This document shows, piece after piece, positions 18,301-59,038 of a stretch of DNA of 64,000 nt; within the stretch, counting starts at the first letter, position 1, and each line of letters starts with the position of its first letter. The notes beneath the pieces are model-generated. The model saw only the letters and a list, made by a program, of their open reading frames with translations, was not told where the DNA came from and searched no databases. Origin of the DNA: Lingula anatina (Eukaryota > Animalia > Brachiopoda); assembly GCA_051362555.1 (NCBI GenBank), contig CM120640.1, positions 36,103,967-36,167,966 of the forward strand. The letters are read 5' to 3'. Made by a program: the position numbers and the translations under genes.

Positions 18301-18934
18301 CAATGGTTCTCCGACAAGATTTGGAACTTCTCCCACGAGACGCACACGGTTTAATTCCTGTGATGCTGATTCAACAACGGAAAATTACGTAGAGAACAAT
18401 ATTGTTTGTAATGCATCACCATCTAGAATAACAAGGCGGATGCTTAGTGCCCCTGAGACATCCTTGAGATTGTATGACGATTCTGAATTCAAAGATGGAA
18501 GTGAGACTAGTGGTAGCATGGGAAGTGAACTGTCCGAGTCCAGTTCAGATATACAAGACATCGGAGCAAAACTTCGCAGCTCTCATGGGAAATATGGATT
18601 TCACAGTATGAACGGTGATGCAACAGATAGTCAATGTGGAGGAATGCTACAGCTTAAAATTCCCAAATTGAAAATCAAAATAAGGAGAGACCAGGATGAT
18701 GAAGGCTATGAAATTTTGGGCACAACAGCATACAGACGTAAATCCAAGAAGAAAAAATCCAAGAGCAAGAAGCACAGGGACAAGAAGCGGTTTAGTGAGA
18801 GCTTTTATGCAGGGAGTGATGAAGAGGTTCTGGAGAGAAAAACTAATTTGAAGAGACTGAAGCTGAAGTTTGGAGGAGACTCTATTGACATTGACACATG
18901 TATTCCCCCTAGCAAAAGGCAGCGTATATATTAA
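15392..18934 (+). CDS. KMT5B: Histone H4K20 methyltransferase Suv4-20 (KMT5B/C family), ~602 aa
   Basis: Exons 15392-15525, 15975-16140, 16322-16434, 16596-16782, 17102-17238, 17587-17744, 18021-18934. Family motifs [85 protein letters not shown]. Confidence 0.95.
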
Positions 18935-29734: not shown

Positions 29735-30578
29735 TGGGATATAAATATTGATTATCAAAATATGTCCCCTGAGAACAGCAGTTGATAAAGGAAGCTTTTG
29801 ATTTTTCCTTTTTGCATGTTGGATTTTATTGAATTTGTTTTGAAAAATTTAAAAAGGAAAGGACCTCTATGTATTTATATATATAACCATTTTGTTGGCA
29901 CATCCTGTCTATGTTAGCTTAGATTTGCAGCAGATATGGTAGATACTTCAGATTGGAGAGGCAAGTTGGTGGGCTGAGATGTTCCCAGTTTTTATTTGCT
30001 TAATGTTTAAGTATTTTATATGTTTGTCTTGTTTGCAAAAAAGATGCATTGATTTTTAAAAAATGTTTTTATATGAATAGCATGGATGCTATGATATGTT
30101 CACAGATATGTTATTTACAACAGGCAGTATTGTTATATATTATAGTGCTAATGAATAACACTTGAGATTGAAATGTCACAGAACTTAGTCCCAAGTCAAT
30201 TTAAGATTAATATTGTATGGAGTGTGGTGTAAAGGTGGGAGTTGTAGCAATAAATGCTACAGATGATAATTGAGACGTCATAACTAAATTGTTATTGGGG
30301 AAGGGATAATGGTGGTGAAAATTACAATAATGATAATTCTGAGTAGATGAACTAGATCGGTCAACACAGTCTGCCCTTTTTGTTAACCAGTCCTTCCTGT
30401 AAATGTAGAACATTAACATAAGTTTGCTTTTTTTTTCCTTTTTGTTTACATTTTCTCTGGTATTTCAGGATACAGAGGTGGACCCCGTGGTGGTAGTGCA
30501 GGAAGAGGGGGAAGGGGAAATTATGGCGGAAAATCCAACAGCTATGGTGGGTCAACACCTCCACAAGTGGCAGCATAA
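22158..30578 (+). CDS. CAPRIN1: Caprin-1-like RNA granule protein
   Basis: Exons 22158-22271, 23115-23177, 25239-25325, 25511-25672, 25918-25994, 26296-26471, 26681-27091, 27340-27671, 27908-28052, 28518/21/24-28700, 29477-29590, 30469-30578. HR1 motif VDKKVRNLEKRKGKLDGY...LNEDQKEAIDKY...NLEFARDLQK, G3BP-binding-like YDFLQES, MNASAPVFQSM and C-terminal RGG boxes. Confidence 0.93.
24066..24278. mobile_element. 213-bp PIF/Harbinger (Tourist-like) MITE, copy A
   Basis: TTA on both flanks (24063-65 and 24279-81), imperfect TIRs. Colinear with 45755-45967. Confidence 0.8.
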
Positions 30579-31388
30579 CAAGAAGCAACAACAACAAATA
30601 TTAAGTCTCGAATTTGAAAGTCCAGTAAAAAAGAAAACAACAACAGCAGGAGAATAGTGTGGTGTTAGAGACAGCTTTCTCCTTTTAGAGCTTGGATGTT
30701 TGGAGTATGAAGGAACGTACTCCTCTAACTTTTCAGTTTGAGGCTAAAGATCAGCGAAGTTAGAAGGCAAATTTCAAGAGCAACAACAAAGTTGGAAGAA
30801 AAAAAATATTAAAAAAAAAAAAACAAAAAAAAAGTATTTGTCATGACCAATAGGGAAAGTAAAAACAAGACTATCAGACCCAAGTGGATTGCTTGATCTA
30901 GAGTCATCTCAGCAACAGTGTTTTGGTTCTATAAGTATAACTAACAACTTAACTGTGTTGTTCGTAAGTATATATTTAAGAAAGCATGAAATCCCAAACT
31001 GGGAATTTTCAGTTAAGAGAAAAAAAAAGTAAAAAGCAGAAAAAAAAGAGAAAAACCCACTGATGTGACAGAGCACTTTGTTATTTAGCTGTGTTTCCTC
31101 AGGATAACAATCTGTTGCAGCGGTTCTTTTACTACATCCACTCCATAGATGCTTGAAAGCTATGTTGATAATTTGCTTAGGGGATTGGGGAAGGGGGTGG
31201 GACCTGTACAGAGTTGGACTGTGGCAGAGCATCTTTTGTAAACTAATTTTTAGGGTTCCTTGTCAAAGGCAGTATGTTAGGTATCATATATCGGATGTAT
31301 TGCGGATGTAAATTTAAAGTGATGGTCCTGTCTTTATTTGCTCCCATCTCTGCTTTTGTATGTGCATACTCAGATGTTTATAGAAGCC

Positions 31389-31394
31389 AAATAA
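31389..31394 (+). terminator. Putative Caprin polyadenylation signal (AATAAA)
   Basis: AATAAA ~0.8 kb after the stop codon, followed by a GT-rich tract. It is duplicated at 43775-43780. Confidence 0.55.
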
Positions 31395-33616
31395 ATTCTC
31401 TCAGTAAAATATGTGTGGCTTTTCTCTGTAACAATCTCTGAAAAGATTATAAAAAATAAATAATAAAAAAAAATAACTAACTTTGAATGTTGGAATGAAT
31501 TAATTTAACATTGGTAAATGTGAGAAAATCGTCATTAACTTCACCAAAATGAGAAGTTTTTATCCCTTTTATCAAAACTTGACTAGAAATGTTGCAGTAT
31601 GTCATGTCGATTTAAATTGGATATATAAAAATCTCTATTCGGTGAGATGGGGATGTTTGAATAGACAACTTTTTAGAAGCCTTTACCTTTGATTCGCCTT
31701 TTACCTTGCCTCGGTGAATGCATTTGTTTTCAGCTGTGGATTTTTTAAAACTCGTGGGTACATCACTTAAAAGTCGGCTGGTCCGACGAAGTGGAATATG
31801 CTACCAAATGAATCGACTGAAAATTTTAAAGGAGTTGAGAACAGCTTTTAGGAAATTTTATTATTAATTACCTTAATTGAAATTGTTTTTATGTGAGAAT
31901 TGGGCACGTGATCAGATTTTATATGGCGGTCAGTTGGTGTGTCTTGACTTTTTTCGATCTGCGTAGACTGCTTGCCCAATTCCTTCCGATAACAACTGAG
32001 AATTAAGACCCATGCACTCATTCTCTCTATATACAATGTAGGTCCATTTGAAGAAAAGTGATATCGGCAATTATCTAACGGTTATAGGTGCAAGTTATTA
32101 ACCTGAAGAGGCGGAATATAAGCAATCTTAGAATATCGATACAATTGAATTGTTCAGTCAGAACAGTGCAAAGGGTCTGGTCTCAAAAATCTGGTTAATT
32201 TTTTGTGAAATTTGATGTTAATAAAATGATACCAGGAGCATATCATTCCACAGTCATTTATCTCCCCCATAGTATTGGCTCAGTAGAGGGTGACACTTCT
32301 ATTGTCCAGTGTGTGTATCTTTAACTGTCGCTTTGGATCTTCTACTGTGTTGACATGGAAATAGGGCTACACTATACCAGATCTCTCAAAGGCCATTCAG
32401 AACAAGCTTATCCGCGGACTAACAAATCTGCGGACTTCATATGACCGACTCATTTGAAACAAGCGAAACAAACTAATTTCATGATGGCTTCCCCGCCTCT
32501 ACACGCGCCGTCGCTGCAGGGGCCTTGCAATAAAACCTCAGAGATGTGGTTTAATCCGTTAAATGGCGCGTGCAGAGACGGGGAGACCATCAGAGGATTG
32601 ATCGGCGTTGCTTTGAAGTCCAGTTGGCCATATTTAGTCCGCGGATCATCTGTTCTGAATGGTCTCTTAGACTCGTTCTTAAACGTCACAAATAGGATCA
32701 CTGACCAAGTATTGTCACAACTTATAGTAAAAACCATTGTCACGACAATCACCACTTGCTCTGGAAGCATATAAAAATGGTCGCAAATCGAGCTGAACAG
32801 ACTATCTAGATTTTGTTAACTGGATAGATTTCGACTCAAACAAGCCCATGTCCATAGAGACTCCATAATTTGAATAGATGGACACTTGTTTCATACATAG
32901 GTGTAGAAACATCGGCAGCCCTGATCGCAGGAAGCAGGGCATGGTTGTGGTGATGGGGTGGTAGTAGGTGCTCCGTCCACCGTTTATGTCACTTACATAT
33001 TGCGTTGGGGCTCGACTCCAGACAACATATTTCCAACTTCATGTTGGCCCTACATAATATCCTTTGATACTCCCTCGCTTTTTCTTTTTATGATGCTTAG
33101 CCCTTCACAGAAAATTGCTTTCTTCGCGGCTGCTATCGCGTTCCCTTTTTTCTCCCTTTTTGGATTCAGTTAATAATGTATCTGAGGTTTATTTTAAATC
33201 TAGACATGTTAAGTTCTATTTGTTGAGTGCAACAAAGCACAAGCTGGTCCAAAGAGTATTCGAGAAAGCTACAGAAATTTGAATACTTTTTTACGTATTT
33301 GGAATGCGGAAGTTTGTATTAGCTACAGCTTAGTCAGTCGATGTTGAAAAAAACTTTTCTTTGTATCAAGTCTTCGTAGCCAATGAAATTTCGCCCTTGG
33401 AAGACAGATTTGAAAGGTGACAGGTAAAAGGAAACCCTCTTTCCATTTTTTCATTGAAATTCGATGACTTTTTGAATAGAACTAGGGGCTTGCATGAAAC
33501 GTCCTTTATACTCCTGTATGGGGTATGTACAGTTGTGCATACATCCGTGTTGGTCTTTTAAATATATGAAAAGAGTACCTTTGACAGTAAAACACGACCT
33601 TTGCAAAGTTTCATTA

Positions 33617-33669
<53 letters not shown>

Positions 33670-33781
33670 GGAGTAAATCTGCACCAAGTTAAAAAAAACA
33701 TCAACGGAGCTTGTCAATCTGACACGTAAATGTTGGAACTTCCTGAAAAGATTAGTGATTATTTGGCGCCCTTGGTCAGAC

Positions 33782-33863
33782 ATGGAAGGCGGTCTTGGCA
33801 GCCAAAGATATGGAAAGATTATTTTCCTAGTCCTCACAGTTTTTAGTGTTTGGTCAGCAGGTG

Positions 33864-33915
<52 letters not shown>

Positions 33916-34222
33916 CTTAGACTTAAATTTGAAGAACAATCGATAGGTAAGAATTCTAAATAACATCTTATATATTTAAGGGTCCAAATATTGACTTTTC
34001 CGAAGTCTAGAACTGATCTGTAACATGAACAAGAATATATGAAATAATTGCTAAACAATTAGGATAAACTTGAGACATAAGTCCTCATGGTAATTTCAAA
34101 ATCTATAGTTAACACTTTGAATTCAACAGAGAATTAAGTGGATGGTTTTGAAACTATCGTATAATATTTTAACAGAAACATACAATTATTGATTATGGAT
34201 GTCTATAAGGTGTCTCTCGACA

Positions 34223-34272
<50 letters not shown>

Positions 34273-37200
34273 CCGACCACAATGCACCTTATAAACGAAT
34301 ATATTTACTTTATAAATCTATTATTCGAATGGATCCTGGATAAATGAAAATGGAAAATCGAGCGCTCTTCTACAGTAGGGGCCTATAGATGTAGGGGGCC
34401 TACGACATGAGCAAAACGTGCAACCGTGGGACTGAAAAATCCCTATTAAATCAGTTTGACACATAACTCAGTTTTCATGGGGCTTCAAAAGCAATATTTT
34501 ATTAATTTCTTAAGTATAACATTGAAGGAAGGTACCTTTCGAAACATTTAAAAATAGGATGTGCTTGTTTACACGACAGATCATACGCCCAGTTTTGAGA
34601 AATGTTGACATACTGGTCCGCGGATTGCATGGAAGCCGATCCCCCCCCCCCCCCTTGGCGTGGGGTTTGGGGCCCGCTGAAGGGCCCCGAAAGTTTTTGG
34701 TATTTTAGAGGGCAAACGGTGCCGTTTGGTACGGTTTAGAACTATGATCCAGTGCAGGCCTACTACTAGTATAGTATATTTCAAGAGGGGACCATTAGTG
34801 TGATTTTTTCAGAAATCGAACGGGGGATCAGGACCCCCCTGACACCCCTCCTAAATCCGCCTCTGAAATCCATATTTGTTCGTTTAAATGCGTGAAAAAG
34901 AAGCGGATTATGTTGTTTAGTCTACGTCTTGTTGTTTACGCCAAATGCGCCATCTATAATGTAGTGGATAGTGTTGAATGAAAGTTCTGACAGCGTGGTC
35001 TTTGAATGTATTCCGTTCTATGACATGGTTTTAGAAGTCGTGTGAATAGGGGTACTAGAGACACACTTGTAAGAGAGGAAAAACAAGTGTTGCGAAGTGA
35101 GCGAAAATGAGAAAAGTAATCAGGCCAGAGGTAAGCATAAAGCTCAAGTGTGTGTGTGTGTGTGTGTGTGTGGGGGGGGGGGGGGGGTCTGTCTAATTAA
35201 GGATATTGTCACCCTTCGCCCAATAAAGAACAAACAAGATTGGGTAGGATTGATTCATTCATTGAATTTTATTCAATTTTATCCAGAAATGAATTTTATT
35301 ACCTGTTGTTTATATTCCAGCACAATCAAGCAAGTGCAGAGGCAACGTTTGTTACATTGAGGACCCTAGTTTCACAGACTTTCAGAGTGCAAGGCAGAGA
35401 TGCCAGTCATTTGGAGGCGATGTGGTTATGGTTGACACACTTGAAGAGAGAAGATTACTGACTGAAATATGTCTTCGTAGTAAGTACATGTATCTATATA
35501 TTACAAGAACTGCATATCATGATTGGGTTTATATTATGATATTGGTCCAATCAGGGAATTATATCAGATGGCTCATGCGGTACAGGTCCTGTTCCAGTTT
35601 GTCCCGTATTTTGGTACTATTAATAACTCCAGTCAGTTCAAACATAATAAGCTAGCCACATGTAGCTATGCCTTTTTCTTGTCTTAATAGAAAAAACGGA
35701 ACAGTGATGATGCCAGTAATGGTATGTTCAGACTGTTACATATACTAGTACTAGTATCTCTCCATAAAAAGATAACTAAAAAGAAATAAATATTGTAGTT
35801 GACATCATTTGGGAAACCAGCCATTATATACTGTGGAACAGTGTATAAGTAATTTGTGCATTGTATTAATAGCTATTATATAGTTTTATAGAATTACAAT
35901 ATTTAACTGAAGAAATAGTTTTCTCAGTCATTTTGTTGTACAATGTAATACACAATACATTATATACAATAAAGTTTATTTTCATGTCGGAAAGAATGAA
36001 ATTAGCTATATTCACCAACAGAATAAATTAAATAATGATACATTAATTGTTTACTACTACTTAATGTAATCTGTTAGGTAACTATACTGCACCGTATCTA
36101 CTGATGGGAGCAACTTACAGTTCAGAACAATGGGTGTGGTTTACTGGAGAAGCAGTAAGTCCATCAGTCATGTCTTGGGCAGTTGGGCAGCCAGAAGATC
36201 CTTCTGCACAGCCATTTCTGTGTATTGATTCCACAACTGGTCTTTGGCATGATTGTGCAAGTGATTTACAGGGAGTTTTGTGTGAGACCCCATCATTCTG
36301 TTCAGGACTGAGCTGCTGCCCTGGCTTAAATAGTACCTGTAGAGTAAACTTACCTGGACATGGCGGCTGTTATTGTGATGAACACTGCTTAACAGTAAGA
36401 GATTGTTGTGTAGACTATGTGGATACCTGTGTAGGTATGCAAATTTTGTTTTTATATTATACTCAACATTTTGTTATCTCATATAAGTTAAAGAGAAGTA
36501 CTGTTTTACTTAAAATGAACTGCTAGTAGAAAGTCAAGTTCCTCCCTCTGGTCATTGACTTGCACCATAAAAAAAACACATTTTTTTCATGTAGGACATC
36601 CATGTATAATAGGATGATTTTTACACATCCCTGGACACTGAAATGCATATTTATGTTAAATTTCTGTTTCTGATAGTAATACATTTATTCTTTTCCTCAG
36701 TGATTGATGAGTGCTTTGCTTACACAACTGTTACTGGTGAAATATCAAGAAGTTCAATGTACCACAAGAATTCTGTTGAAGCAGTAGCATGTGATGATAA
36801 AATAGACCACGGCTGGTTAAGATTTGACATGATAACTGGGAATGATATGCCTGTGACCTGCCATTTTGAAGGTGACTGTGGTACAGATAATACCATATGG
36901 CTTAATGGTAGGTACCTTTAAATATATATCTTTCATTGTTATAGACAGGCACTGTATATAAAAAGTGTCTGAATAGTGTCTATATATATTCTGATTAGTA
37001 TGGCTGTCCACAGTCTGTCTCTCCCTGTCGTTGCTGTCGCCGTCGCCATCCCTGTCACTATCAACGTTTTCCCCATAACTGCCAAACCATATTTTTGTTT
37101 TACTTTAAATTTACTGAGTGACCTTGTTTGGTAAAGAGGCAGGATACATTTACATTTTTCGGTAATTATTCTGTTTTTTTTCCACAATTTTTTTTTACAT

Positions 37201-39875
37201 TGGCCCCATAACTTTTAAACTGTATTTTTGTTTTACTTTCAATTTACTGAGTGGCTTTGTTTGGTAAAGGTGCAGGATTTTTATAAAAAATCAGCATGAT
37301 CGCTTTACATTTATAGTTATTATTCTTTTTTTTGTGTAAAATTTTTATTTTTCACACAGTAACATTTCCATTGGCTTTTATATCCCACATGGAACTGAAT
37401 CACTTCCTAGTTTTTCAATGGCCATGTTACCTGTAGTACATAATGTGAGAGGGTGAGAGTGATTATGCTGCTTGAAAGCATTATGTAACAGTGCATCAAA
37501 ATTGTCCAAAACATTATTGTTTGCACTTTTTTCTGCAAAATGTCTGAACATTTGTCAGCTTTTCTGCCTTGTTTCCTGTATGGTGTCTGTATATTTGTTA
37601 TCTGTGCTGTCTAGTTATAGAAATGTGTCCTAAATGTGTATACCAACTCGGAAAACTGTAATCAAAAGCTCACGTAAGGTGCATTCACAATGAATCTGTC
37701 ATACTAACTATGTAGTGCACACTAATTCCACTGGGACTCTCTTGGCATTGTGAGAGAATATAACCGCCCGGGGGGGGGGGGGGGGGGGTTTGTTCGAAAG
37801 AACCACTCTTTTTGGTGGAAAAATTTCCACTATGGGTAAAATTTATCTATCTACTTGAGGATTTTGTGGTAAAAGGTCCACTTTTTCAGAAAACGACCCT
37901 CCCCCCCCTCTGAAATTGCTGGCTACGGGCCTGCCACCTTATAACTGTAGTGAATTAGAGGCCAATTGAATGATGTTGTGATTTTATAGTTTTTTGAAAA
38001 TTGCAAAGGGGCTTTCCAATGTAAAATAAAAAAAATTCCTGTGACTGGATCCAATCCAGGTAAAACATGTTTTGTGCAATGTTATCCTATGGGGATTTTT
38101 TTTTAATTTCAGGATTTTTTATTCAGAATAAGATAAGGGCCATCAACTAAATTTGGTGGTCAGATCTGGGTACCAGCACATTGATTAAAAAAAATCTGAG
38201 CAATACATTCAGTATTATGAGCCAGACAGTGTAAACAGACATACCTATAAACAAACACACAAGCACACACACACACACAAACCGACCAAACAACATACCT
38301 TGCAATTCTGGAAAGGGGATTTAAAAAAAAAAAAATAATAATAATAAAATAAAATAAAATAATAATCCATCATGGAGGTCATGAAATAGCAAAGAAACAT
38401 TACCATTTATCACTAAATAGGGGAAGTTCAAGCACTTACTTTATCACAATTTTTGCATCACAGGTTCCTTACCCTCTGCTGCTGATGGTATCATTAACAG
38501 AACTGCATGTGTAAAGAATTCCACTGTTTGTTGTGCCAAGACGTATGACATACAGATTAAGAACTGTTCTACATACAATGTGTATCATCTGCCACCTGTG
38601 ACTCAGTGTCCTGAGCGTTACTGTATAGGTCAGTGCTTGTCTCGTAATTTTTCATTGATAATGAATTAAGATACATATACTAGTTCCTATATGTATCTGG
38701 GTACATGTATTTACAATGTACAAGGTGACTGTTTGAATTTTAATTTGTCATTTGTTCAAGTTTTCACCATGGCACAAAAATACACAAAATAAACATTAAT
38801 GTTATATATGGGCATGCTAGTATACAGCAATTTTATGCATTGCATGTAACTGATGTTAAAATGATTGAACTGACTGTAAAATTTAATAAGATGCACATTT
38901 TTAATGGTTGTACATGTAAAAAAAATTCTTATTTCCTCATCTGGTTTACAATTCATTTAGGTGATAAGGCACTCTGTCCCCCAGGAACTGTCTCAGAAAA
39001 TGGATTTGAACCAGGTTGCTCAGGTTAGGTCCATACATTTATTAAATTTAAAGAGTTATGCATATGATGAAGGTTTTATAAAGGTCACACTTTGTCTAGC
39101 ACTTGACAAGCATAAAAGTATACTAAGATGGATAAATTAAATAATTGAATATATTTACTCAGTTTTTAAGAATTGGCAGCATTTGGTTAACTCATATTAC
39201 AGTAAAACAAAAGGGAGAACAACTGTTCTTATTATATACGTATTTCACATTAAATACATTGTAAACAACTCACAAAAATATGATAAATTCTATTTTACCA
39301 CCAAAACGGTGGTTATTCTGGAATTTGTGCTTGCCATCAGATCACGTTACCTCCATAGATGGCTACACTCTGTAATAATCTCTAAAGGGAATATTACAAA
39401 AACAAAAACAAAAAAAAACTTTTTAGGAAAAAACCAGGGACTAACTTTGAATGTCGGAATGGATTCATTAACCAATGGTCAGTATGGTAAAATTGTCGTT
39501 TACCCCAGGAAAATCCATTTTTTTTGGCCAAAATGAACCTTTTAACAAACATCCCTTTAAATAAACAGTTTGCGTATAAAAGTTTTCATTTTGTTAGATA
39601 ACTTCCCAAATATAACGCAGCAACCAGACATTCAAGTGGATGAAAGAGTTGTACGCTATACTTTTGGAAATATACCAAAAAAAGAGCTTATGTTCACCTG
39701 CCTGCCCTACTATGATGAAGTTCCTCCAGAGCGGCTGTCTCAGCTTGTCTTTCATGTGGAATGGTACATTGATTCACAACTTGTCCATGAGGAGGACAGC
39801 GTCAATGTTACTGATTTGCCTGCTCAGCTCAGAGAAAGTGTCTGGCTGAGCAAATCAATTACTCTTGGTTTTCAG
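33782..39875 (+). CDS. Truncated duplicate of the VWDE-like gene (SP-CTL-SMB-D8C-partial Ig-like, 436 codons, no stop); may splice to 40379-40567
   Basis: Exons 33782-33860 (signal peptide MEGGLGSQRYGKIIFLVLTVFSVWSA), 35321-35479, 36078-36434, 36701-36907, 38464-38628, 38961-39023, 39598-39875. The frame is open throughout and splice sites are intact. Confidence 0.8.
36940..37614 (+). mobile_element. Degenerate Helitron/Helentron-like non-autonomous element (also at ~50130-50945)
   Basis: 5' ATAGAC...GTCTAT inverted motif, GTCGCC-type microsatellite, two ~135-bp internal repeats, ends with CTAG-T. Confidence 0.5.
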
Positions 39876-40378
39876 GTAAGAGGATATGTGATATTTTTAT
39901 GGCTTTTATAGGCTACATTTAAAACCAGAAATTTGGCAGAAATAGTTTGTCTGGGGTCATATCTTTGTGTGTTCACATTCTTACTCCCCACCCATCTGCA
40001 CCAATTGATCCTCACCTTTATCATTACTCCTCCACACCATTCCTTCTCCAAATCAACACATATCTAACACACTTGAGACCAAAATGTCGCAGAACTTAGT
40101 CCTAAGTCAATTTAAGATTGATATTGTATGGAGTGTGGTGTAAAGGTGGGAGTTGTAGCAATAAATGCTACAGGTGATAATTGAGACGTCATAACTAAAT
40201 TGTTATTGGGGAAGGGATAATGGTGGTGAAAATTGCAATAATGATAATTCTGAGTAGATGAACTAGATCGGTCAACACAGTCTGCCCTTTTTGTTAACCA
40301 GTCCTTCCTGTAAATGTAGAACATTAACATGAGTTTGCTTTTTTTTCCTTCTTGTTTACATTTTCTCTTGTATTTCAG

Positions 40379-40567
40379 GATACAGAGGTGGACCCCGTGG
40401 TGGTAGTGCAGGGAGAGGGGGAAGGGGAAATTATGGCGGAAAATCCAACAGCTATGGTGGGTCAACACCTCCACAAGTGGCAGCATAACAAGAAGCAACA
40501 ACAACAAATATTAAGTCTCGAATTTGAAAGTCCAGTAAAAAGGAAAACAACAACAGCAGGAGAATAG
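40379..40567 (+). other. Orphan duplicate of the Caprin terminal (RGG) exon; open 62-codon alternative frame ending at TAG 40565-67
   Basis: Near-identical to 30469-30657 with an intact acceptor TATTTCAG. The Caprin frame stops at 40486-88. The phase-0 frame reads DTEVDPVVVVQGEGEGE...TTTAGE*. Confidence 0.85.
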
Positions 40568-40781
40568 TGTGGTGTTAGAGAAAGCTTTCTCCTTTTAGAG
40601 CTTGGATGTTTGGAGTATGAAGGAACATCTACTCCTCCAACTTTTCAGTTTGAGGCTAAAGATCAGCGAAGTTAGAAGGCAAATTTCAAGAGCAACAACA
40701 AAGTTGGAAGAAAAAAATATTAAAAAAAAAACAAAAAAAAAGTATTTGTCATGACCAATAGGGAAAGTAAAAACAAGACTA

Positions 40782-41974
40782 CGGTAAAGTCTTGAAAATT
40801 TCGTCGTTCTTAAAAATTTCGTCGGCAGACGATTTTCCGCCGACGTAATTTTTTTCCCTTTGAAAACTTCGTCGACCTTGAAAATGAGGTACTCGATAAT
40901 TTTTGAAAAGTTCGTCACCAAATATGGCCGCGTTGTCCGGCTCAAACATGAAGGTAATGCGTCAGTTGATTCAAGACAATGATACGATCAGGATATCATT
41001 GCCGATAACACTCTCAATGGGAGATAGGAACAATAGTGCGCCCCTGCGAGCGGTTACTCACAATATAGATGGTTTAGATGTGAATTCCCGTTCTCAATTG
41101 CGGGAACGTCGGCCTTTTGTCTTTAGTTGCATTACTATTACCTGGCTTAAGGTGCGTTATCAAGCCGGCAAATAGAAGTCACAGGCCGCGGCTTTGTCAT
41201 TTGTAACGCCGTTATTGTTATCGGCGGCTGTCCTAAATGAGGAAGACACAATGAAAAAATCAAGATATTATCTCGAAGTGAAATGTACCCGTCACTTCTA
41301 TTCATGTCCATGTTCAATTTAGGACCATTTAACGATTACCTGGCTCGTACATGGAGATCGTTCGCAATGCGAATGGGACGAGATGGCAATTTTCATATCT
41401 TCAGCGGAGAATCGTTCGCGTAATATCGTCAACAGATCGTTCGCGATCCAAAAGAGACGAGAAGATAATTTTCATATTTGTAGCGGACTCCGTTCGCATA
41501 AGATCATCAGCGGGAGATCGTTTGCGATTCGAGAGAGACGAAAAAGCAATCTTCATATCTTCAGCGGGAGATCGTTCGCGATGTAAGTGAGAATAAAATG
41601 CACTTTTCATATTTGTTCAAGGGAACTTCGTTCGTGGAAGATCGTCAACAGGAGATCATTATTTTAACCCCCCCCCCCCTTTGAATTTTATAAATAATAT
41701 ATATTTTTCATTTTATCTTTAACCCCCCCTTCCCCCGCTCACGGCATATCTTCAGCGGAAAATCGTTCGCGTAATATCGTCAAGACTTTGTTCGCGTAAG
41801 ATCGTCAGAGGGAGATCGTTCGCGATCCGAGCGAGACGAAAAGGCAATTTTCATATCATCATCGGGAGATCGTTCGCGATGTAAGCAAGAATGAAATGCA
41901 ATTTTCATATTAGTTCAAGGGATTTAGGGAACTTCGTTGGCGGAAGATCGTCAGCGGGAGATTATTTAACCCCC

Positions 41975-42005
<31 letters not shown>

Positions 42006-43257
42006 ACTTTGGATTTTTAAAAAATATTCGTTTTCATTTGATCTTTAATCCGCCCCCCCTTCCCCCGCTCACGGTATATCTTCGGCGGAGAATTGTTCGC
42101 GTAATATCCTCAGGACTTCGTTCGCGTAAGATCATATCAGAGGGAGATCGTTCGCAATCCTACATGTAGCTTGACGTAAAGGCAATTTTCATATCTTCAT
42201 CGGGAGATTGTTCGCGATGTAAGCAATAATAAAGTGTAGTTTTCATATTAGTTCAAGGAACCCAGTTTGCGAACGATCGTCAGCGGGAGATCATTATTTT
42301 AACCCCGCCTCCCCCTTTGAATATTATAAATAATAAATATATATTTAGTTTTATCTTTAACCCCCCTTCCCCGCTCACGGCATATCTTCGGCGGAGAATC
42401 GTTTGCGTACTATCGTCAGGACTTTGTTCGCGTAAAATCGTCAGAGGGAGATCGTTCGCGATCCGAGCGAGACGAAAAGGCAATTTTCATATCATCATTG
42501 GGAGATCGTCCGCGATGTAAGCAAGAATGAAATGCAATTTTCATATTAGTTCAAGGGATTTAGGGAACTTCGTTAGCGGAAGATCGTCAGCGGGAGATCG
42601 TTCGCGATCCTTGCTTAACTTACTGTACCCGAAAAGGCAGTTTTCACATCTTCATCGGGAGATTGTTCGCGATGTAAGCAATAATAAAATGCAGTTTTCA
42701 TATTAGTTCAAGGAACTTAAATTGCGGAAGATCGTCAACGGGAGATCATTATTTTAACTCCCTGTAAATTTTTAGGAAGTTACAGATGGTAATTTTAGAA
42801 GGCCTGACACTCAATCCTGGGAAAAGCCCTGCATGCGACAAACGTTCCCAAGTGCGTAATTTTTTTTAACATGTTGCGTCCAGGTTATGATGCAAGGTTG
42901 CAATTAGGCTTATCTTCATCCTTCCGATCTCCTCTATCAGGAGGTATGTTTCTTACCGAGAAAATAATTCTCAACATGTTTTCGGGTACAGTAAGTTAAA
43001 TATAACTTAATCGAGATACACTAATAAATTGATTATTATTTACCACCAGAAAATGACTTAGGAAGTAGTAATAAATATCCCACCATATAGGAGGGTCAAA
43101 GATAACAGTCGCTAAGGATAAAAGCCCAAAGGCCGGATTTTTGAAAATTTCGTCATACCCAGGAGTCGGGGAGAGGTAATTTTGAAAAATTAGTCGGATT
43201 TACACAATTAAAAATATTAATTAATTTTTAAGCGACGAAATTTTCAAGACTTTACCG
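40782..43257. mobile_element. Non-autonomous DNA transposon (Tc1/mariner-pogo-like, TA TSD), 2476 bp, carrying an internal satellite
   Basis: Perfect 25-bp TIR CGGTAAAGTCTTGAAAATTTCGTCG / CGACGAAATTTTCAAGACTTTACCG with TA on both sides. The empty site AAGACTATCAGACC is at ~30867 in unit 1. Subterminal GAAAA.TTCGTC motifs; no transposase ORF. Confidence 0.92.
41350..42760. repeat. Complex tandem repeat inside the transposon
   Basis: Recurrent GGGAGATCGTTCGCGAT / TTTTCATAT subunits (~30-65 bp) in ~305-330-bp blocks. Anchor GGAGAT(CAT)TATTT(T)AAC at 41651, 41957, 42286 and 42741. Confidence 0.9.
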
Positions 43258-45754
43258 TATCAGACCCAAGTGGACTGCTTGATCTAGAGTCATCTCAGCA
43301 ACAGTGTTTTGGTTCTATAAGTATAACTAACAACTTAACTGTGTTGTTCGTAAGTATATATATAAGAAAGCATGAAATCCCAAACTGGGAATTTTCAGTT
43401 AAGAGAAAAAAAAAGTAAAAAGCAGAAAAAAAGAGAAAAACCCACTGATGTGACAGAGCACTTTGTAATTTAGCTATGTTTCCTCAGGATAACAATCTGT
43501 TGCAGCGGTTCTTTTACTACATCCACTCCATAGATGCTTGAAAGCTATGTTGATAATTTGCTTAGGGGATTGGGGAAGGGGGTGGGACCTGTACAGAGTT
43601 GGACTGTGGCAGAGCATCTTTTGTAAACTAATTTTTAGGGTTCCTTGTCAAAGGCAGTATGTTAGGTATCATATATCAGATGTATTGCGGATGTAAATTT
43701 AAAGTGATGGTCCTGTCTTTATTTGCTCCCATCTCTGCTTTTGTATGTGCATACTCAGATGTTTATAGAAGCCAAATAAATTCTCTCAGTAAAATGTGTG
43801 GCTTTTCTCCGTAACAATCTGTGAAATGATTTAAAAAAAACTAACTTTGAATGTTGAAATGGATTAATTTAACATTGGTAAATGTGAGAAAATCGTCATT
43901 AACTTCACCAAAATGAGAAGTTTTTATCCCTTTTATCAAAACTTGACCACAAATGTTGCAGTATGTCATGTCGATTTAAATTGGATATATAAAAATCTAT
44001 TCGGTGAGATGGGGATGTTTGAATAGACAACTTTTTAGAAGCCTTTATCTTTGATTCGCCTCTTACCTTGCCTCGGTGAACGTATTTGTTTTCATCTGTG
44101 GATTATTTGAAACTCGTAGGTACATCACTTAAAGTCGGCTGGTCCAACGAAATGGAATATGCTACCAAATGAAATCCGCTCAATTGAATCGACTGATAAT
44201 TTTAAAGGAGTTGAGAACAGCTTTTAGGAAATTTTATTATTGATTACATTGATTGCAATTGTTTTTATGTGAGAATTGCGGTGTATTTTTCTAGAATCTT
44301 AAGTTGAAACGCCCGTAAAGTGGGCACGTGATCAGATTTTATTTGGCGGTCAGTTTGTGTGTCTTGACTTTTTTCGATCTGCGTAGACTGCGTGCCCAAT
44401 TCCTTATGATAACAGCACTCATTCACAATACGTACAATGTAGGTCCATTTGAAGAAAAGTGAAAAATGAAGTTAAATATAAATTCCACACTTCTTTTTCT
44501 AAACCTCTGGGTAATGATAAATGATAAATCGAGCTTTTTGTATAAATCGTGGAAAATTTTTAATTCATGCCTTGCCATTATGGGAAATTTTCACATACAG
44601 TAACGAAGGTTTTAGTAACGAAAGTGTTAAAAAGAACCCTATCACTGTATGGTTTAATATTTACACGTTATGAATACTAACAATATAGTTTGCAAATTAC
44701 TCTATGAGACAGCAGTTTTCGTGCTCTGTCACCTTATCGTCTACCTAACCATGGATGTAACCGAATGGAAGATTTTATTAATGACTCAAATATTGCAAAA
44801 ACATCAAGCAACTTAAAATAATGACCTGCAGCAAAAGACGTTATGAAGGTTTTTTCAAAATTTTAAGAACTGGGCGACACCGCGAAAGTAGCCGCAAGCT
44901 TTTTGTCGAGTTATTTAAAATAAACATTCCAGTCATTTTCTGAGACGTTAGATATCATACTCGCTTCTTGAAAAATTTCAGATTTTTTACTGTAGTAAAA
45001 ATACACTAGATCAATTGGAGAATGTGAGATGGTGCTGCAAGCGACAGTAACGAAGGCTTAAAATTTAGACTGTTTATGTTTTTTTTTTTGTGTGTATGTG
45101 AGAACAAATAGATATAGTAATACTTCTTTACTTTTAAGTTGTAAGTCTGATATAAGTTAAGATCCAATTGGGCAAACAATTCTTTCGCTTGCTTAATTTG
45201 TAAATAATAAAACAAATTTTGAATGACCCTATATGGAGAATGAGTGACAGTGTACCTTTAACTGTCGCTTTGGATCTTCTACTGTGTTGACATGGAAACA
45301 GGGCTACACTATACCAGATCTCTCAAAGGCCATTCAGAACAAGCTTATCCGCGGACTAACAAATCTGCGGACTTCATATGACCGACTCATTTGAAAGTAG
45401 CGCCGACTAATTCCGTGATGGCTTCCCCGCCTCCACACGCGCCGTCGCTGCAGGGGCCTTGCAATAAAACCTCAGATATGAGATTTAACCCGTTAAATAG
45501 CGCGGGGGGAGGGGGGGGGGCAGTAGGGGCTCTGTCCACCGTTTATGTCACTTACATATTGCGTTGGGGCTCGACTCAAGACAACATATTTCCAACTTCA
45601 TGTTGGCCCTACATAATATCCTTTGATACTCTCTCGCTTTTTCTTTTTATGATGCTAAGCCCTCCACAGAAATTTGCTTTCTTCGCGTCTGCTATCGCGT
45701 TCCCCGTTTCTCCCTTTTTGGATTCTGTTAATAATGTATCTGAGGTTTGTTTTA

Positions 45755-45967
45755 GGGTCTATTCCCACAACTTTAGATCGATCTATCACCGCGGGGAGTC
45801 TCACTAGATTACTGTCAGATAATCCCCCTTAAGTGTCCGTCCCCGCCTACTACAAGCTGTAAGGGGTAATTAACTTTCGTATCCGCCCGGCTGACAGCTA
45901 TTTAGCGCGAACCCCGGGGAGTTAGGTCGATCTAAAGTAGGTCGATCTAATCTATGGAAATGGGGTG
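45755..45967. mobile_element. 213-bp PIF/Harbinger (Tourist-like) MITE, copy B
   Basis: TTA TSD (45752-54 and 45968-70). Absent at the paralogous site ~33194 in unit 1. Homologous to 24066-24278. Confidence 0.85.
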
Positions 45968-46389
45968 TTAGATTTAGACATGTTTAGTTCTATTTGTTGA
46001 GTGCAACAAAGCACTAGCTGGTCCAAAGAGTATTCGAGAAAGCTACAGAAATTTGAATACTTTTTTTACGTATTTGGAATGCGGAAGTTTTTATTAGCTA
46101 CAGGTTAGTCAGTCGATGTTGAAAAAACTTTTCTTTGTATCAAGTCTTCGTAGCCAATAAAATTTCGCCCTTGGAAGACAGATTTGAAAGGTGACAGGTA
46201 AAAGGAAACCCCTTTCCATTATTTCATTGAAATTCGATGACTTTCTGAATAGAACTAGGGGCTTGCATGAAACGTCCTTTATACTCCTGTATGGGGTATG
46301 TGCAGTTGTGTATGCATCCGTGTTGGTCTTTTGAATATATGAAAAGAGTACCTTTGACAGTAAAACACGACCTTCGCAAAGTTTCATTA

Positions 46390-46433
<44 letters not shown>

Positions 46434-46544
46434 GGAGCAAATCTGCACCAAGTTAAAAAAACATCAACAGAGCTTGTCAATCAGACACGTAAATGTTGGA
46501 ACTTCCCGAAAAGATTAGTGATTATTTGGCACCCTTGGTCAGAC

Positions 46545-46626
46545 ATGGAAGGCGGTCTTGGCAGCCAAAGATATGGAAAGATTATTTTCCTAGTCCTCAC
46601 AGTTTTTAGTGTTTGGTCAGCAGGTG

Positions 46627-46704
<78 letters not shown>

Positions 46705-47021
46705 GACTCCAGTTTGAAGAACAATCGAATCGATAGGTAAGAATTCTAAATAACATCTCATATATTTAAGGGTCCAAATATTGACTTTTCCGAAGTCTGA
46801 AGGACTGATCTGTAACATGAACAAGAATATATGAAATAATTGTTAAACAATTAGGATAAACTTGAGACATAGTCCCTCATGGTAATTTCAAAATCTATAG
46901 TTAACCACTTTGAATTCAACAGAGAATTAAGTGGTTGGTTTTGAAACTATCGTATAATATTTTAACAGAAACATACAATTATTGATTATGGATGTCTATA
47001 AGATGTCTCTCGATACTGTTT

Positions 47022-47055
<34 letters not shown>

Positions 47056-50000
47056 CCGACCACAATGCACTTTATAAATGAATATATTTACTTTATAAAT
47101 CTATTATTCGAATGGATCCTGGATAAATGAAAATGGAAAATCGGGGCCTACACATGTACGACATGAGCAAAACGTTGTGCAACCGTGGGACTGAAAAATC
47201 CCTATTAAATCAGTTTGACACGCAACTCAAAGTTTTCATGGGGCTTTAAAAGCAATCTTTTATTAATTTCTTAAGTGCTGTATAACATTGAAGGAAGGTA
47301 TCTTTAGAAACATTTCAAAATAGGATGTGCTTGCTTACACGCCCAGTTTTTGAGAAATGTTGACATACTGGTACATGCACAGATGCACTAAGGATAGCGG
47401 TTTATTATCATCTAGATACCGAAAATGAGTTTTTTCCTACCTCTGTGCTGATTTTAAACAATGTTAAAAATAAAAAAATCCCTTTGAAAATATAAAATAT
47501 CGTCTATTATATTTCTCGTTGCTATGTATAAGAATAGGCAACTCAAAGCTTTTATCGTCAGTTTAACATCTTTCTATTTTTATATGAAATTACAATCGAT
47601 ATGGGGCGTAACTTCATCCCAGAATGAAATTTTATCACAAAAATTGGCATAGTTGACCACAAGTGTATGGGTTACAATCACGTTCCACTATTTTGGTTTA
47701 AATGTTTTTGTTATGGGGTTATTAGCCCCTAATTGCAGTTTTTCAATAAACAAAGGCATTATTTTGCTTTATCAACGATAAAATCTGAACTAAGGCTTTG
47801 AAGAGAAATTGTTAGTTTAGATCCAGTGTAGGCCTACTACTAGTAGGCTATATTTCAAGAGCTGCAAGGGACCTTAAGTGTGATTTTTCAGAAATCGAAC
47901 GGGGGATCAGGACCCCCCTGACACCCCCCCCCCCCTAAATCCGCCACTGGAATCCATATTTGTTCGTTTAAATGCGTGAAGTAGAAGCGGATTTTCTAAT
48001 GGTTATCATATGTATGCTGTTCAGTAGTTTAGTCGACGTCTTGTTGTTTACGCCAAATGCGCCATCTATAATGTAGTGGATAGTGTTGAATGAAAGTTCT
48101 GACAGCGTGGTCTTTGAATTTATCCCGTTCTATGACATGGTTTTAGAAGTCGGGTGGACAGATGAACTCTAGTGGTACTAGAGACACATTTGTAAGAGAG
48201 GAAAAACAAGTGTTTCGAAGTGAGCGAAAATGAGAAACGTCATCAGGTTAGAGGTAAGCATAAAGCTCAGTCAAGTGTGTGTGTCGGTGTGTGTATGTGT
48301 GTGTGTGTGGGGGGGGGGGGGTCTGTCTAATTTAGGATATGTGTCACCCTTCGCCCAAAACTAACAAACAGGATTGGGTAGGATTGATTTATTCATTAAA
48401 TTTTAGCAAATTTTATCCAGAAATTAATGTTCTTACATGTTGTTTATATTCCAGCACAATCAAGCAAGTGCAGAGGCAACGTTTGTTACATTGAGGATTC
48501 TAGTTTCACAGACTTTCAGAGTGCAAGGCAGAGATGCCAGTCATTTGGAGGCGATGTGGTTATGGTTGACACACTTGAAGAGAGAAGATTACTGACTGAA
48601 ATATGTCTTCGTAGTAAGTATTTATGTATTACTGGAACTAGATATCACATAATGACAAATGTGATGAGATATGGGCCCAATGTGAGCGAATGGCTTTATA
48701 ATATTGGTCCAATGTGACTCATTGGCAATTTAATTGACTTGACTTGCTATCTGAGTTTGCAGTACAAAGTTGCACCTTGTAAAACTTCAAGAAGAATGGC
48801 TCATGTGGTACAGGTCCTGTTCCAGTTTGTCCTGTATTTTGGTACTATAAATCACTCTAGTTAGTTCAAACATAATATGCCAGCCACATGTACATATGTA
48901 GCTACTGTATATGCTTTTTTGTCTTAATAGAAAAAAGGGCACAGTGATGGTGCCAGTAATGATATGTTCAGACATATACTAGTATCTCTCCATAAAAAGA
49001 TGACTAAAAAAAATTAAATATTGTAGTTAATGGGAAACCACCCATGACACCGTTATGTACTGTAGTACAGTGCATAAGTAATTTATGCATTGTATTAATA
49101 GCTATTATATAGTTTTATTAAATTACAGTATGGTACTGATGAAATAGTTTTCTCAGTCATTTTGTTGTACAATATAGTACACAATACAATAAAGTTTATT
49201 TTCATGTTGGAAAGAATGAAAGTAGCTATTAAATAATGATACATTGTTTACTACTACTTTTTGTAATCCATTAGGTAACTATACTGCACCTTATCTACTG
49301 ATGGGAGCAACTTACAATTCAGAACACTGGGTGTGGTTCACTGGAGAAGCAGTAAGTCCATCAGTCATGTCTTGGGCAGTTGGGCAGCCTGAAGATCCTT
49401 CTACACAGCCATATTTGTGTATTGATTCCACAACTGGTCTTTGGCATGATTGTGCAAGTGATTTAGAGGGAGTTTTGTGTGAGACCAAACGCTCATCATT
49501 ATGTCTAGGACTGGGCTGCTGCTCTGGTCAAAATAATTCCTGTAATGTAAACTTACCTATACTTGGCAGGTGTTTTTGTGATGAACATTGCTTAAGAGCA
49601 AACGATTGTTGTGAAGACTATGTGGACACCTGTGTAGGTATGCAAATTTTGTTTTTATATTTTACTAAAAATTTTGTATTTTATATGTAAAGAAATGTTG
49701 TTTAATGTCAAATGAACTACTAGTACTAAATCAAGCTCCTGGCCAATAAACCTTCTTGCACCATAAAAACATTTTTTTTCATACAGGGCATCCATGTACA
49801 GTACAGTAGTAGGATGATTTCCACACTGAAATGCATATTCATGTTAAATTTGTTTCTGATGGTAATACATTTATTCTTTCCTCAGTGATTGATGAGTGCT
49901 TTGCTTACACAACTGTTACTGGTGAAATATCAAGAAGTTCTATGTACCACAAGAATTCTGTTCAAGCAGTAGCATGTGATGATAAAATAGACCACGGCTG

Positions 50001-50683
50001 GTTTAGATTTGACATGATAACTGGGAATGATATGCCTGTGACCTGCCATTTTGAAGGTGACTGTGGTACAGATAATCCCATATGGCTTAATGGTAGGTAC
50101 CTTTAAATATATATATATATCTTTCATTGTTATAGACAGGCACTGTATATAAAAAGTGTCTGAATAGTGTCTATATATATTCTGATTAGTATGGCTGTCC
50201 ACAGTCTGCCTCTCCCCGTCGTTGCTGTCGCCATCCCTGTCACTATCCACGTTTTCCTCATAACTGCCAAACCATATTTTTGTTTTACTTTAAATTTACT
50301 GAGTGACCTTGTTTGGTAAAGAGGCAGGATGTGTTTACATTTTTCGGTAATTATTCTGTTTTTTTCCACAATTTTTTTTGACATTGGCCCCATAACTTTC
50401 AAACTGTATTTTTGTTTTACTTTCAATTTACTGAGTGGCTTTGTTTGGTTAGGGTGCAGGATTATAAAAAAATCGGCATGGTCGCTTTACATTTACAGTT
50501 ATTATTCTTTTTTTTTTGTGTGTAAAATTTTTATTTTTCACACATTAACATTTCCATTGGCTTTTATATCCCATATGGAACTGAATCACTTCCTAGGTTT
50601 TCAATGGCCAATCTCTCTCACCCTCTCACATTATGTACTACAGGTAACATGGCCATTGAAAACCTAGGAAGTGATTCAGTTCC

Positions 50684-50721
<38 letters not shown>

Positions 50722-53700
50722 ACTGAATCACTTCCTAGGTTTTCAATGGCCATGTTACCTGTAGTACATAATGTGAGAGGGTGAGAGAGATTATGCTGCT
50801 TGAAGGCATTATGTAACAGTGCGTCAAAATTGGCCAAAATATTATTGTTTGCACTTTTTTTTTTTGCATAATGTCTGAACGCTTGTCAGCTTTTCTGCCT
50901 TGTTTCCTGTATGGTGTCTGTATGTTTGTCATCTTTGCTGTCTAGTCATAGAAATGTGTCCTAAATGTGTATACCAACTCAGAAAACTGTAATCAAAAGC
51001 TCACGTAAGGTGCATTCACAATGAATCTGTCATACTAACTATGTAGTGCGCACTAATTCCACTGGGACTCTCTTGGCATTGTGAGAGAATATAACCGCCG
51101 AGGGGGGGGGGGGGGGTGAGTTCGAAAGAACCACTCTTTTTGGTGGAAAAATGTCCACTATGGGTGAAATTTATCTATCTACTTGAGGATTTTGTGGTAA
51201 AAGGTCCACTTTTTCAGAAAACGACCCTCCCCCCCCCCCCCTCTGAAATTGCTGGCTACGGGCCTGCCACCTTATAACTGTAGTGAATTAGAGGCCAATT
51301 GAATGATGTGATTTTATAGTTTTTTGAAAATTGCAAAGGGGCTTTCCAATGTAAAATAAAAAAAAATTCCTGTGACTGGATCCAATCCAGGTAAAACATG
51401 TTTTGTGCAATGTTATCCTATGGGGATTTTTTTTTAATTTCAGGATTTTTTATTCAGAATAAGATCAGGGCCATCACCTAAATTTGGTGGTCAGATCTGG
51501 GTACCAGCACAATGATTCAAAAAAAAAAAAAAAAAAAATCAGAACAATACATTCAGTATTATGAGCCAGATAGTGTAAACAGACATACCTATAAACAAAC
51601 ACACAAGCACACACACACACACAAACCGACCAAACAACATACCTTGCAATTCTGGAAAGGGGATTTCAAAAAAAAAAAATAATAATAATAATAAAATAAA
51701 ATAAAATAAAATAAAATAATAATCCATCATGGAGGTCATGAAATAACAAAGAAACATTACCATTATTACTAAATAGGGGAAGTTCAAGCACTTAATTACT
51801 TTATCACAATTTTTGTATCACAGGTTCCTTACCCTCTGCTGCTGATGGTGTCATCAACAGAACCGCATGTGTAAAGAATTCCACAGTTTGCTGTGCCAAG
51901 ACGTATGACATACAGATTAAGAACTGTTCTACATACAATGTGTATCATCTGCCACCTGTGACTCAGTGTCCTGAGCGTTACTGTATAGGTCAGTGCTTGT
52001 CTCGTAATTTTTCATTGATAATGAATTAAGATACATATACTAGTTGCTATATGTATCTTGGTACATGTATTTACAATGTATAAGGTGACTGTTTGATTGT
52101 AATTTGTCATTTGTTCAAGTTTTCACCATGGCACAAAATACACAAAATAAACATTAATGCTATATATGGGCATGTTAGTATACAGCAATTTTATGCATTG
52201 CATGTAACTGATGTAAAAGTGATTGCACTGACTGTAAAATTTAATAAGATGCACATTTTTAATGGTTGTACATGTAAAAAAAATTCTTATTTCCTCATCT
52301 GGTTTACAATTCATTTAGGTGGTAAGGCACTCTGCCCCCCAGGAACTGTCTCAGAAAATGGATTTGAACCAGGTTGCTCAGGTTAGGTCCATACATTTAT
52401 TAAATTTAAAGAGTTATGCATATGATGAAGGTTTTATAAAGGTCACACTTTGTCTAGCACTTGACAAGCATAAAAGTATACTAAGATGGATAAATTAAAT
52501 AATTGAATATATTTACTCAGTTTTTAAGAATTGGCAGCATTTGGTTAACTCATATTACAGTAAAACAAAAGGGAGAACAACTGTTCTTATTATATACGTA
52601 TTTCACATTAAATACATTGTAAACAACTCACAAAAATATGATAAATTCTATTTTACCACCAAAACGGTGGTTATTCTGGAATTTGTGCTTGCCATCAGAT
52701 CACGTTACCTCCATAGATGGCTACACTCTGTAATAATCTCTAAAGGGAATATTACAAAAATAAAAACAAAAAAAAACTTTTTAGGAAAAAACCAGGGACT
52801 AACTTTGAATGTCGGAATGGATTCATTAACCAATGGTCAGTATGGTAAAATTGTCGTTTACCCCAGGAAAATCCATTTTTTTTGGCCAAAATGAACCTTT
52901 TAACAAACATCCCTTTAAATAAACAGTTTGCGTATAAAAGTTTTCATTTTGTTAGATAACTTCCCAAATATAACGCAGCAACCAGACATTCAAGTGGATG
53001 AAAGAGTTGCACGCTATATTTTTGGAAATATACCAAAAAAAGAGCTTATGTTCACCTGCCTGCCCTACTATGATGAAGTTCCTCCAGAGCGGCTGTCTCA
53101 GCTTGTCTTTGATGTGGAATGGTACATTGATTCACAACTTGTCCATGAGGAGGACAGCGTCAATGTTACTGATTTGCCTGCTCAGCTCAGAGAAAGTGTC
53201 TGGCTGAGCAAATCAATTACTTTGGGTTTTCAGGTAAGAGAATATGTGATATTTTTATAGCTTTTATAGGCTACATTTAAAAGCAGAAATTTATCAGAAA
53301 TAGTTTTTCTGGGGAGAGTATTGTTTTTCTTAAAAAGTAATGGTATAAAAAATAAAGAGAAAATTGTCCAAATATAATGTTCTGTAACTATTGGTCAGTC
53401 ATAAAACTTTTTAAAAAGAGCGTTTAGAGCTTTTTAAAAATCACATGCTGCAAGAGCTTATATTTCTTAGTTCTCATATGGGGCTGAGTATTCAAAAGAT
53501 ATTTCTCCAAATGTTTTAGGCCTTGCACAATTAGGTTTTAATTAAAGCTGGTCATTAGATCTTAATGTGGTGAAACATGAGATACAATTTCACAAAAATA
53601 ATCGGGTGCAAGTCCATAAGCAGCAGCATGGTATATTAAAAGTTTGAATAAAATCCGTGCATTGACAGGTAACCAGTGAAGTTTTATTAAAATTGGTGTC

Positions 53701-58987: not shown

Positions 58988-59038
<51 letters not shown>

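Follow-up and report, generated by a model that had tools for sequence, protein, structure and literature searches.

A tandem duplication in Lingula anatina that sets seven VWDE-like exons upstream of a copied, out-of-frame Caprin exon

Background

When a partial duplication places the first part of one gene in front of the last exon of its neighbour, does the result amount to a new gene? The question is raised by a stretch of 64,000 nucleotides from the brachiopod Lingula anatina (the window, whose positions are used throughout), in which the first seven exons of a VWDE-like gene are followed by a copy of the last exon of Caprin. The first-pass annotation of this DNA proposed that the two are spliced together into a secreted protein and that the locus is an instance of gene birth by duplication and overprinting. 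Chimeras of this general kind are known as segregating variants in Drosophila, with 78 in D. yakuba and 38 in D. simulans, or about 10% of gene-capturing duplications, in the portion of the study available to us (PMC4069613). A published account of the Lingula locus was not met in the literature listings, and the terms heterozygos-, Caprin and VWDE do not occur in the main text of the Lingula genome paper (PMC13121700).

Results

Architecture of the duplication

Self-BLAST and alignment show that 30158-39956 and 40069-53314 of the window are tandem copies. Unit 1 (30158-39956, forward strand) holds the native Caprin last exon, a spacer and exons 1 to 7 of the VWDE-like gene with the original promoter, and unit 2 (40069-53314, forward strand) holds the copied Caprin last exon and 3'UTR, the spacer and exons 1 to 7 of the intact VWDE-like copy. 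The breakpoints lie in two different genes, both on the forward strand, namely in the last intron of Caprin (30158/40069) and in intron 7 of the VWDE-like gene (39956/53314). Between the units is a filler of 112 nt (39957-40068), which had been overlooked. No convincing source for it was found within the window; its best match, to the reverse strand of the right flank, has a score that was attained by 6 of 200 shuffles and comes from one of eight comparisons.

The coding part of the native Caprin last exon (30469-30578, forward strand) has a phase-1 acceptor, as the first-pass annotation had stated, followed by 35 further codons and TAA, and loose ends of RNA reads link it to upstream Caprin exons, one of which matches PF18293. 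Three alternative upstream donors for this exon are also seen among the RNA loose ends, at 28700, 29539 and 29591, corresponding to an exon skip, a short donor and a long donor. The intact VWDE-like copy (46545-63338, forward strand) continues from unit 2 past exon 7 into exon 8 and further exons. It has at least 14 exons, with 895 open codons to the last exon found in the window, and includes a VWD domain (PF00094). Its exon 8 (54203-54301, forward strand), which carries the second conserved cysteine and the last strands of an Ig-like domain, is missing from unit 1. Elsewhere in the window, intron 4 of unit 2 (50575-50792) has a 142-nt insertion composed of a GAT repeat and of neighbouring sequence copied in inverted orientation. 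Further upstream, open reading frames on the reverse (9553-14449) and forward (17957-18934) strands correspond to a membrane protein with Ig-like and LDL-receptor-like exons and to a long serine/lysine-rich exon; another gene near 9553-18934 is presumably of the CYTH type.

Presence of the duplication in sequenced animals

An assembly error had been named as one way in which the arrangement might be spurious, and the comparison with independently assembled DNA indicates that the duplication is real. Three DNA runs (X1, X3 and X6) were compared at the joint, as short-read contigs over the region 39545-40700. One contig of X1 spans 39853-40036 with no differences at a depth of 53, crossing the left joint with 104 letters on one side and 80 on the other, and a second spans 40007-40111, again with no differences, at a depth of 68, crossing the right joint with 62 and 43 letters. 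X1 resembles a proximity-ligation library, in that a third contig enters the filler at 40007 reading GATC-GATC. This position is the sole GATC in 39840-40130 and lies 50-60 nt from either joint, and the joints are therefore not ligation products. We considered the third contig as a sign that the filler originates elsewhere and rejected it as a likely ligation product.

X1 also carries the native continuations at both ends, mapping to 53315 and 30139, as expected of any carrier. The depths at the X1 joint, 53-68 : 85 : 167, are compatible with one or two copies of the joint and leave zygosity unsettled. X3 and X6, which come from two other studies, have the native continuations alone and zero depth over 39974-40051; absence from contigs does not prove absence of the joint. 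With the joint in one of three DNA runs, the duplication is likely a segregating variant, X1 being uninformative on its frequency if, as is possible, it is the assembled animal itself. In all three DNA runs we also observed further contigs that differ from exon 7 (39598-39875) by 8-18 letters, which fits close paralogues such as P0005; the VWDE-like family is multi-copy in this species.

The truncated copy and its predicted splice

All seven exons of unit 1 lie on the forward strand. Exon 1 (33782-33860), identical to that of unit 2, supplies the ATG and a hydrophobic N-terminal stretch that is likely a signal peptide. Exon 2 (35321-35479) encodes the first half of a C-type-lectin-like domain, and exon 3 (36078-36434) the remainder of that domain together with a hypervariable somatomedin-B-like domain. 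The D8C domain is divided between exon 4 (36701-36907), which has a private change, P263T, and exon 5 (38464-38628), in which PF23283 is matched. Exon 6 (38961-39023) is part of the exon model, and exon 7 (39598-39875) encodes the first two thirds of a predicted Ig/FN3-like domain, has a second private change, D396H, and ends in a phase-0 donor. The 436 stop-free codons and the donor at 39875 that had been reported are exact: the exons sum to 1308 nt and have AG/GT ends throughout, the last donor being GTAAGA, and all 436 codons, 30 cysteines and splice sites are intact. The upstream region is retained as well (557 of 589 columns identical between units 1 and 2). Transcription of unit 1 is likely, since the original promoter is kept.

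The splice that had been proposed, from 39875 to 40379, uses the acceptor at 40378 and enters the copied Caprin last exon in an alternative frame (40379-40567, forward strand) that is open for 62 codons to the TAG at 40567, and here too the earlier description is exact, with a joined model of 498 amino acids. Among the 14 YAG sites listed in 39900-40380, the copied Caprin acceptor is the richest in pyrimidines. It is also the nearest strong one, which makes the proposed splice a reasonable prediction. Read-through from exon 7 into intron 7 would meet a stop after 11 codons, and within the VWDE-like gene the sole in-phase acceptor for exon 7 is that of exon 8 (54203).

The tail and the borrowed 3'UTR

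The predicted tail had been described as arising de novo by overprinting. The open alternative frame exists, and its first 36 or so codons overlie the Caprin frame, but it is not new, because it is equally open in the native Caprin exon. When the bases of the exon were shuffled 5000 times, a frame of this length was open in 119 cases, which makes it only mildly unusual. The tail has no Pfam match, and two matches to repeat proteins among 1.84 billion representatives were judged spurious. Two bases of the tail have changed since the exon was copied, and each change replaces an amino acid when read in the new frame, a comparison based on few sites; native Caprin alleles of other animals have frame-breaking indels in the tail frame (40510, 40543). 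From these sequence comparisons the tail appears to be a pre-existing frame that bears no sign of constraint.

The Caprin 3'UTR attributed to the chimera has indeed been copied, including the AATAAA at 43775 (43775-43780, forward strand; native at 31390), but it is not intact. It is interrupted by a DNA-transposon-like insert of 2478 nt (40780-43257), also overlooked earlier, which has perfect inverted ends of 27 nt that include the TA target. RNA reads and an X1 contig skip over it. Six AATAAA motifs on the forward strand of the insert precede the copied one, and the 3'UTR to 43775 would be 3.2 kb, against about 0.8 kb natively. A long 3'UTR could invite decay even without an exon junction. 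The insert is of a non-autonomous type, with internal tandem repeats and, as judged from contig depth, a high genomic copy number. A search of Rfam over 29000-56000 found nothing. Many RNA molecules in three runs start or end at 43567-43569 (native near 31183), with depth dropping afterwards; this is about 200 nt before the AATAAA at 43775 and may mark either the principal 3' end of Caprin or an artefact of priming.

Domains of the predicted protein

The protein had been described as a C-type lectin, somatomedin-B and D8C protein that lacks VWD, and these labels stand to differing degrees. The D8C domain is firm (PF23283, E 0.0002 in exon 5 and E 3e-11 in P0001, the Lingula protein LOC106158796), and VWD is absent from unit 1 and present in the intact copy (PF00094, E 6e-6). 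The somatomedin-B match is weak (E 0.0008, under the Pfam cut-off), and the C-type lectin label is borrowed from a 68-70% identical paralogue, P0002, rather than obtained by a direct match in this gene. What does not stand is the picture of a protein trimmed cleanly between domains, since the break cuts a predicted Ig-like domain.

The elements FxC378, FDxxW399 and VxC439, together with an AG, are invariant in all six homologues. A predicted structure of residues 323-480 of P0001, made from a six-sequence alignment and of moderate quality (mean pLDDT 70.6), resembles Ig/FN3 folds over model residues 24-150 (best Z 9.4, rmsd 2.4, 86 aligned; 18 chains with Z of at least 8). In a Foldseek search with the same model nothing was found at E 0.001, and the weak matches were of the Ig/FN3 kind only. 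Exon 7 ends at model residue 114, and the strands at 113-125, 128-133 and 142-144 and C439 are lost from unit 1. The predicted Ig-like domain spans about residues 346-472 and unit 1 stops at 436, hence the domain would be incomplete. C378 is the final cysteine of the predicted fusion, and the tail has none; on this model the break strands a conserved cysteine in half an Ig-like domain. Secretory proteins in which half a domain leaves a thiol free usually fail to leave the ER and are degraded there. On these general grounds, ER retention of the predicted fusion product is likely.

Comparison with VWDE-like proteins of lophotrochozoans, which have D8C, Ig-like, VWD and EGF domains and include P0001, the paralogues P0005 and P0006 and the oyster P0007, shows that unit 2 is a member of this family and unit 1 a fragment of one. 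Unit 2 aligns over its full length and contains both D8C and VWD, and any EGF repeats that follow would lie past the end of the window, whereas unit 1, which is about 97% identical to P0001 over 436 amino acids (16 differing columns), ends inside the Ig-like domain and has neither VWD nor anything beyond it. The N-terminal lectin-like domain of the window gene is absent from P0006-P0009. A search for natural short forms yielded, among 852 candidates, only P0002 and an oyster D8C protein. The NCBI model of P0001 lacks most of the VWD domain that is present in the intact copy and in P0005, likely through a gap or an annotation fault.

Differences between the copies

The two units differ at 33 protein columns, and at these the intact NCBI allele P0001 agrees with unit 1 at 21, with unit 2 at 10 and with neither at 2. 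In the RNA run X15, about half of the native Caprin transcripts carry the unit-2 letter at 40542, 40582, 40638, 43275, 43362 and 43467; this run has no depth over exons 2, 3, 5, 6 and 7. Together these patterns suggest that the differences between the copies are mostly standing alleles, and the 1-5% difference between them therefore gives no date for the duplication. Several large indels also separate the copies, which could mean some age. Non-coding divergence ranges from 0.2% in intron 6 (1 of 574 sites) up to 9-12% around exon 3.

Exon 3 itself (36078-36434 in unit 1, 49275-49637 in unit 2) has 35 differing sites and a 6-nt indel. Within 50 codons of its somatomedin-B part there are 21 amino-acid-changing and 5 silent differences, giving a pN of 0.18 and a pS of 0.16, compared with 0.017 and 0.048 elsewhere. 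Positive selection on this region was not detected, the pN/pS of 1.12 being judged not above 1. The best protein match is P0001 (90% over exon 3), which is a mosaic third allele in this exon and shares most of the unit-1 states there, and a two-residue insertion in the somatomedin-B part is common to unit 2 and the paralogue P0002. This hypervariability may reflect balancing selection or conversion by paralogues, and we consider the exon a better lead than the fusion.

In amino acids 218-436, two of the three private changes of unit 1 (P263T and D396H) and none of the five of unit 2 fall at invariant columns (P about 0.1). The two columns are invariant in five homologues, and the private letters lack confirmation in X1 contigs; they may hint weakly at decay of unit 1.

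The search for fused RNA

RNA runs were picked by species label, and their reads were sampled (6% of X12 and X15, 25% of X18). The VWDE-like exons are barely or not expressed in X12 and X15, and X18 is the only sampled run that expresses this gene family. The RNA test that had been suggested for the 39875-40379 junction gave no listed joint of any kind in X18 over 39545-40700, where 62 reads exit exon 7 into exon-8-type sequence and 72 enter the Caprin exon from native Caprin exons; none of the runs is known to come from a carrier. The fusion joint was also absent among the 15 of 87 joints listed in a wider, repeat-swamped layout of RNA reads, in which a rare joint is still possible. At 40413, where the copied exon has G and the native exon A, the copied letter was found in 0 of 1036 reads of X12, 0 of 218 of X15 and 0 of 121 of X18. 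Three X18 reads that seemed to carry it were rejected, as all 121 reads were native in a narrower layout. At 39753 all 47 X18 reads have G and none has the C of unit 1, and many X18 exon-7 reads bear letters found in paralogue contigs. X18 thus gives no sign of the duplication haplotype and is not a fair test of the fusion. The native Caprin acceptor is heavily used, with 866 loose-end reads in X12.

Discussion

The locus is a partial tandem duplicate of a well-described and common chimera-forming class. As in the portions of the Drosophila studies available to us (PMC4069613; PMC5460883), the breakpoints lie in two parallel neighbours, the downstream gene contributes its promoter and 5' part and the upstream gene its 3' part, and the variant is polymorphic, here likely so; novel sequence at the joint is a feature described there and is represented here by the 112-nt filler. 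The Lingula case differs in that introns of unlike phase have been joined, leaving the borrowed exon out of frame, in that it is known from DNA, and in its brachiopod host. It also shares with orphan genes of Pristionchus a partial duplication that is able to bring a latent frame into use, but those orphans, in the parts of the source available to us, are annotated genes with supporting filters, whereas here the frame is predicted and has no sign of constraint (PMC6643871).

We think it probable, on balance, that this is a real and likely polymorphic partial tandem duplication bearing a truncated seven-exon VWDE-like copy, and that the fusion product, if made, is a misfolded dead end rather than a new functional gene. 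A non-homologous break-and-join event would have brought intron 7 of the VWDE-like gene together with the last Caprin intron, the filler lying between them, probably between two divergent homologous chromosomes or with later recombination with other alleles. Unit 1 would then be transcribed from the original promoter and exon 7 likely spliced, out of frame, to the copied Caprin exon. The predicted product would have a lectin-like domain, a somatomedin-B-like domain and D8C, followed by an Ig-like domain cut to two thirds of its length, in which one cysteine is unpaired, and by a junk tail; it would likely be retained and degraded in the ER. With an intact copy downstream, the haplotype would lose nothing and could therefore drift.

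False haplotypic duplication can arise in heterozygous assemblies, and an assembler might have stitched two haplotypes of one heterozygous animal in tandem. Such an error would resemble this locus in having tandem copies with allele-sized, segregating differences, and it would accord with the missing joint in X3 and X6; but here both joints are present in independently assembled X1 contigs (no mismatch, depths 53 and 68), with the only nearby GATC 50-60 nt off. This explanation is largely refuted and retains a very slight probability. If the duplication is real, the divergence of exon 3, with its 35 differing sites, 6-nt indel and introns 9-12% apart, could suggest an old and fixed pair of paralogues in which the somatomedin-B domain of the truncated copy diverged after duplication. 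We regard this as very improbable, given that P0001 shares most unit-1 states in exon 3, that intron 6 differs at 1 of 574 sites and that X3 and X6 lack the joint.

How unit 1 is processed is a separate matter. It may be transcribed mostly without the copied Caprin exon, by read-through of intron 7, by use of a cryptic or transposon poly(A) signal or by a 14.3-kb skip to exon 8, the last of which would give the gene a second, alternative N-terminal half. We hold this to be unlikely yet worth weighing. The stop 11 codons into intron 7 and the six AATAAA within the transposon are in keeping with it, as is the status of exon 8 as the only in-phase acceptor, to which all 62 listed X18 exits from exon 7 lead in kind. 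On the other hand, the copied Caprin acceptor is near and strong and its native counterpart heavily used (the 866 reads of X12), transcription would have to pass the Caprin 3' end before a skip to exon 8 could take place, and the X18 exon-7 reads lack the unit-1 marker (47 of 47 G at 39753) and many look paralogous. That the chimera is a functional secreted protein of 498 amino acids, a short lectin-somatomedin-B-D8C decoy with a new tail kept by selection, seems to us improbable. The open frame, original promoter, strong acceptor within range, stop in the last exon and reality in DNA all accord with such a function, the three N-terminal domains could fold independently, and 24 of 76 segregating D. 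yakuba chimeras have raised expression in the available part of PMC5460883. Protein anatomy nonetheless makes the proposed gene birth unlikely, given half an Ig-like domain and a stranded cysteine, and it is further opposed by the two private changes at invariant sites, by a tail in which both changes alter amino acids and whose frame is broken by indels in native alleles, by the copied-exon marker at 40413 seen in no read of any RNA run (0/1036, 0/218, 0/121) and by a joint unseen in two of three DNA runs. A bolder version is that a hypervariable recognition protein has had two of its deeply divergent somatomedin-B alleles locked on one chromosome, one of them now a short secreted decoy with a brand-new, out-of-frame Caprin tail, so that gene birth is still segregating; we give it a similarly small chance.

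Conclusions

The duplication in L. anatina is a base-resolved example of the raw material for chimeric genes, and it comes from a phylum little explored for variants of this kind. It also illustrates that tandem copies with differences at the level of alleles, in the assembly of a heterozygous invertebrate, can be genuine. It would be of little importance unless the fusion is expressed. If it is, carriers and non-carriers within one population would offer a direct test, from the start, of whether an out-of-frame tail is tolerated or selected. The somatomedin-B exon of this secreted lectin/D8C/VWD protein has deep mosaic alleles and may indicate a recognition or immune locus under balancing selection.
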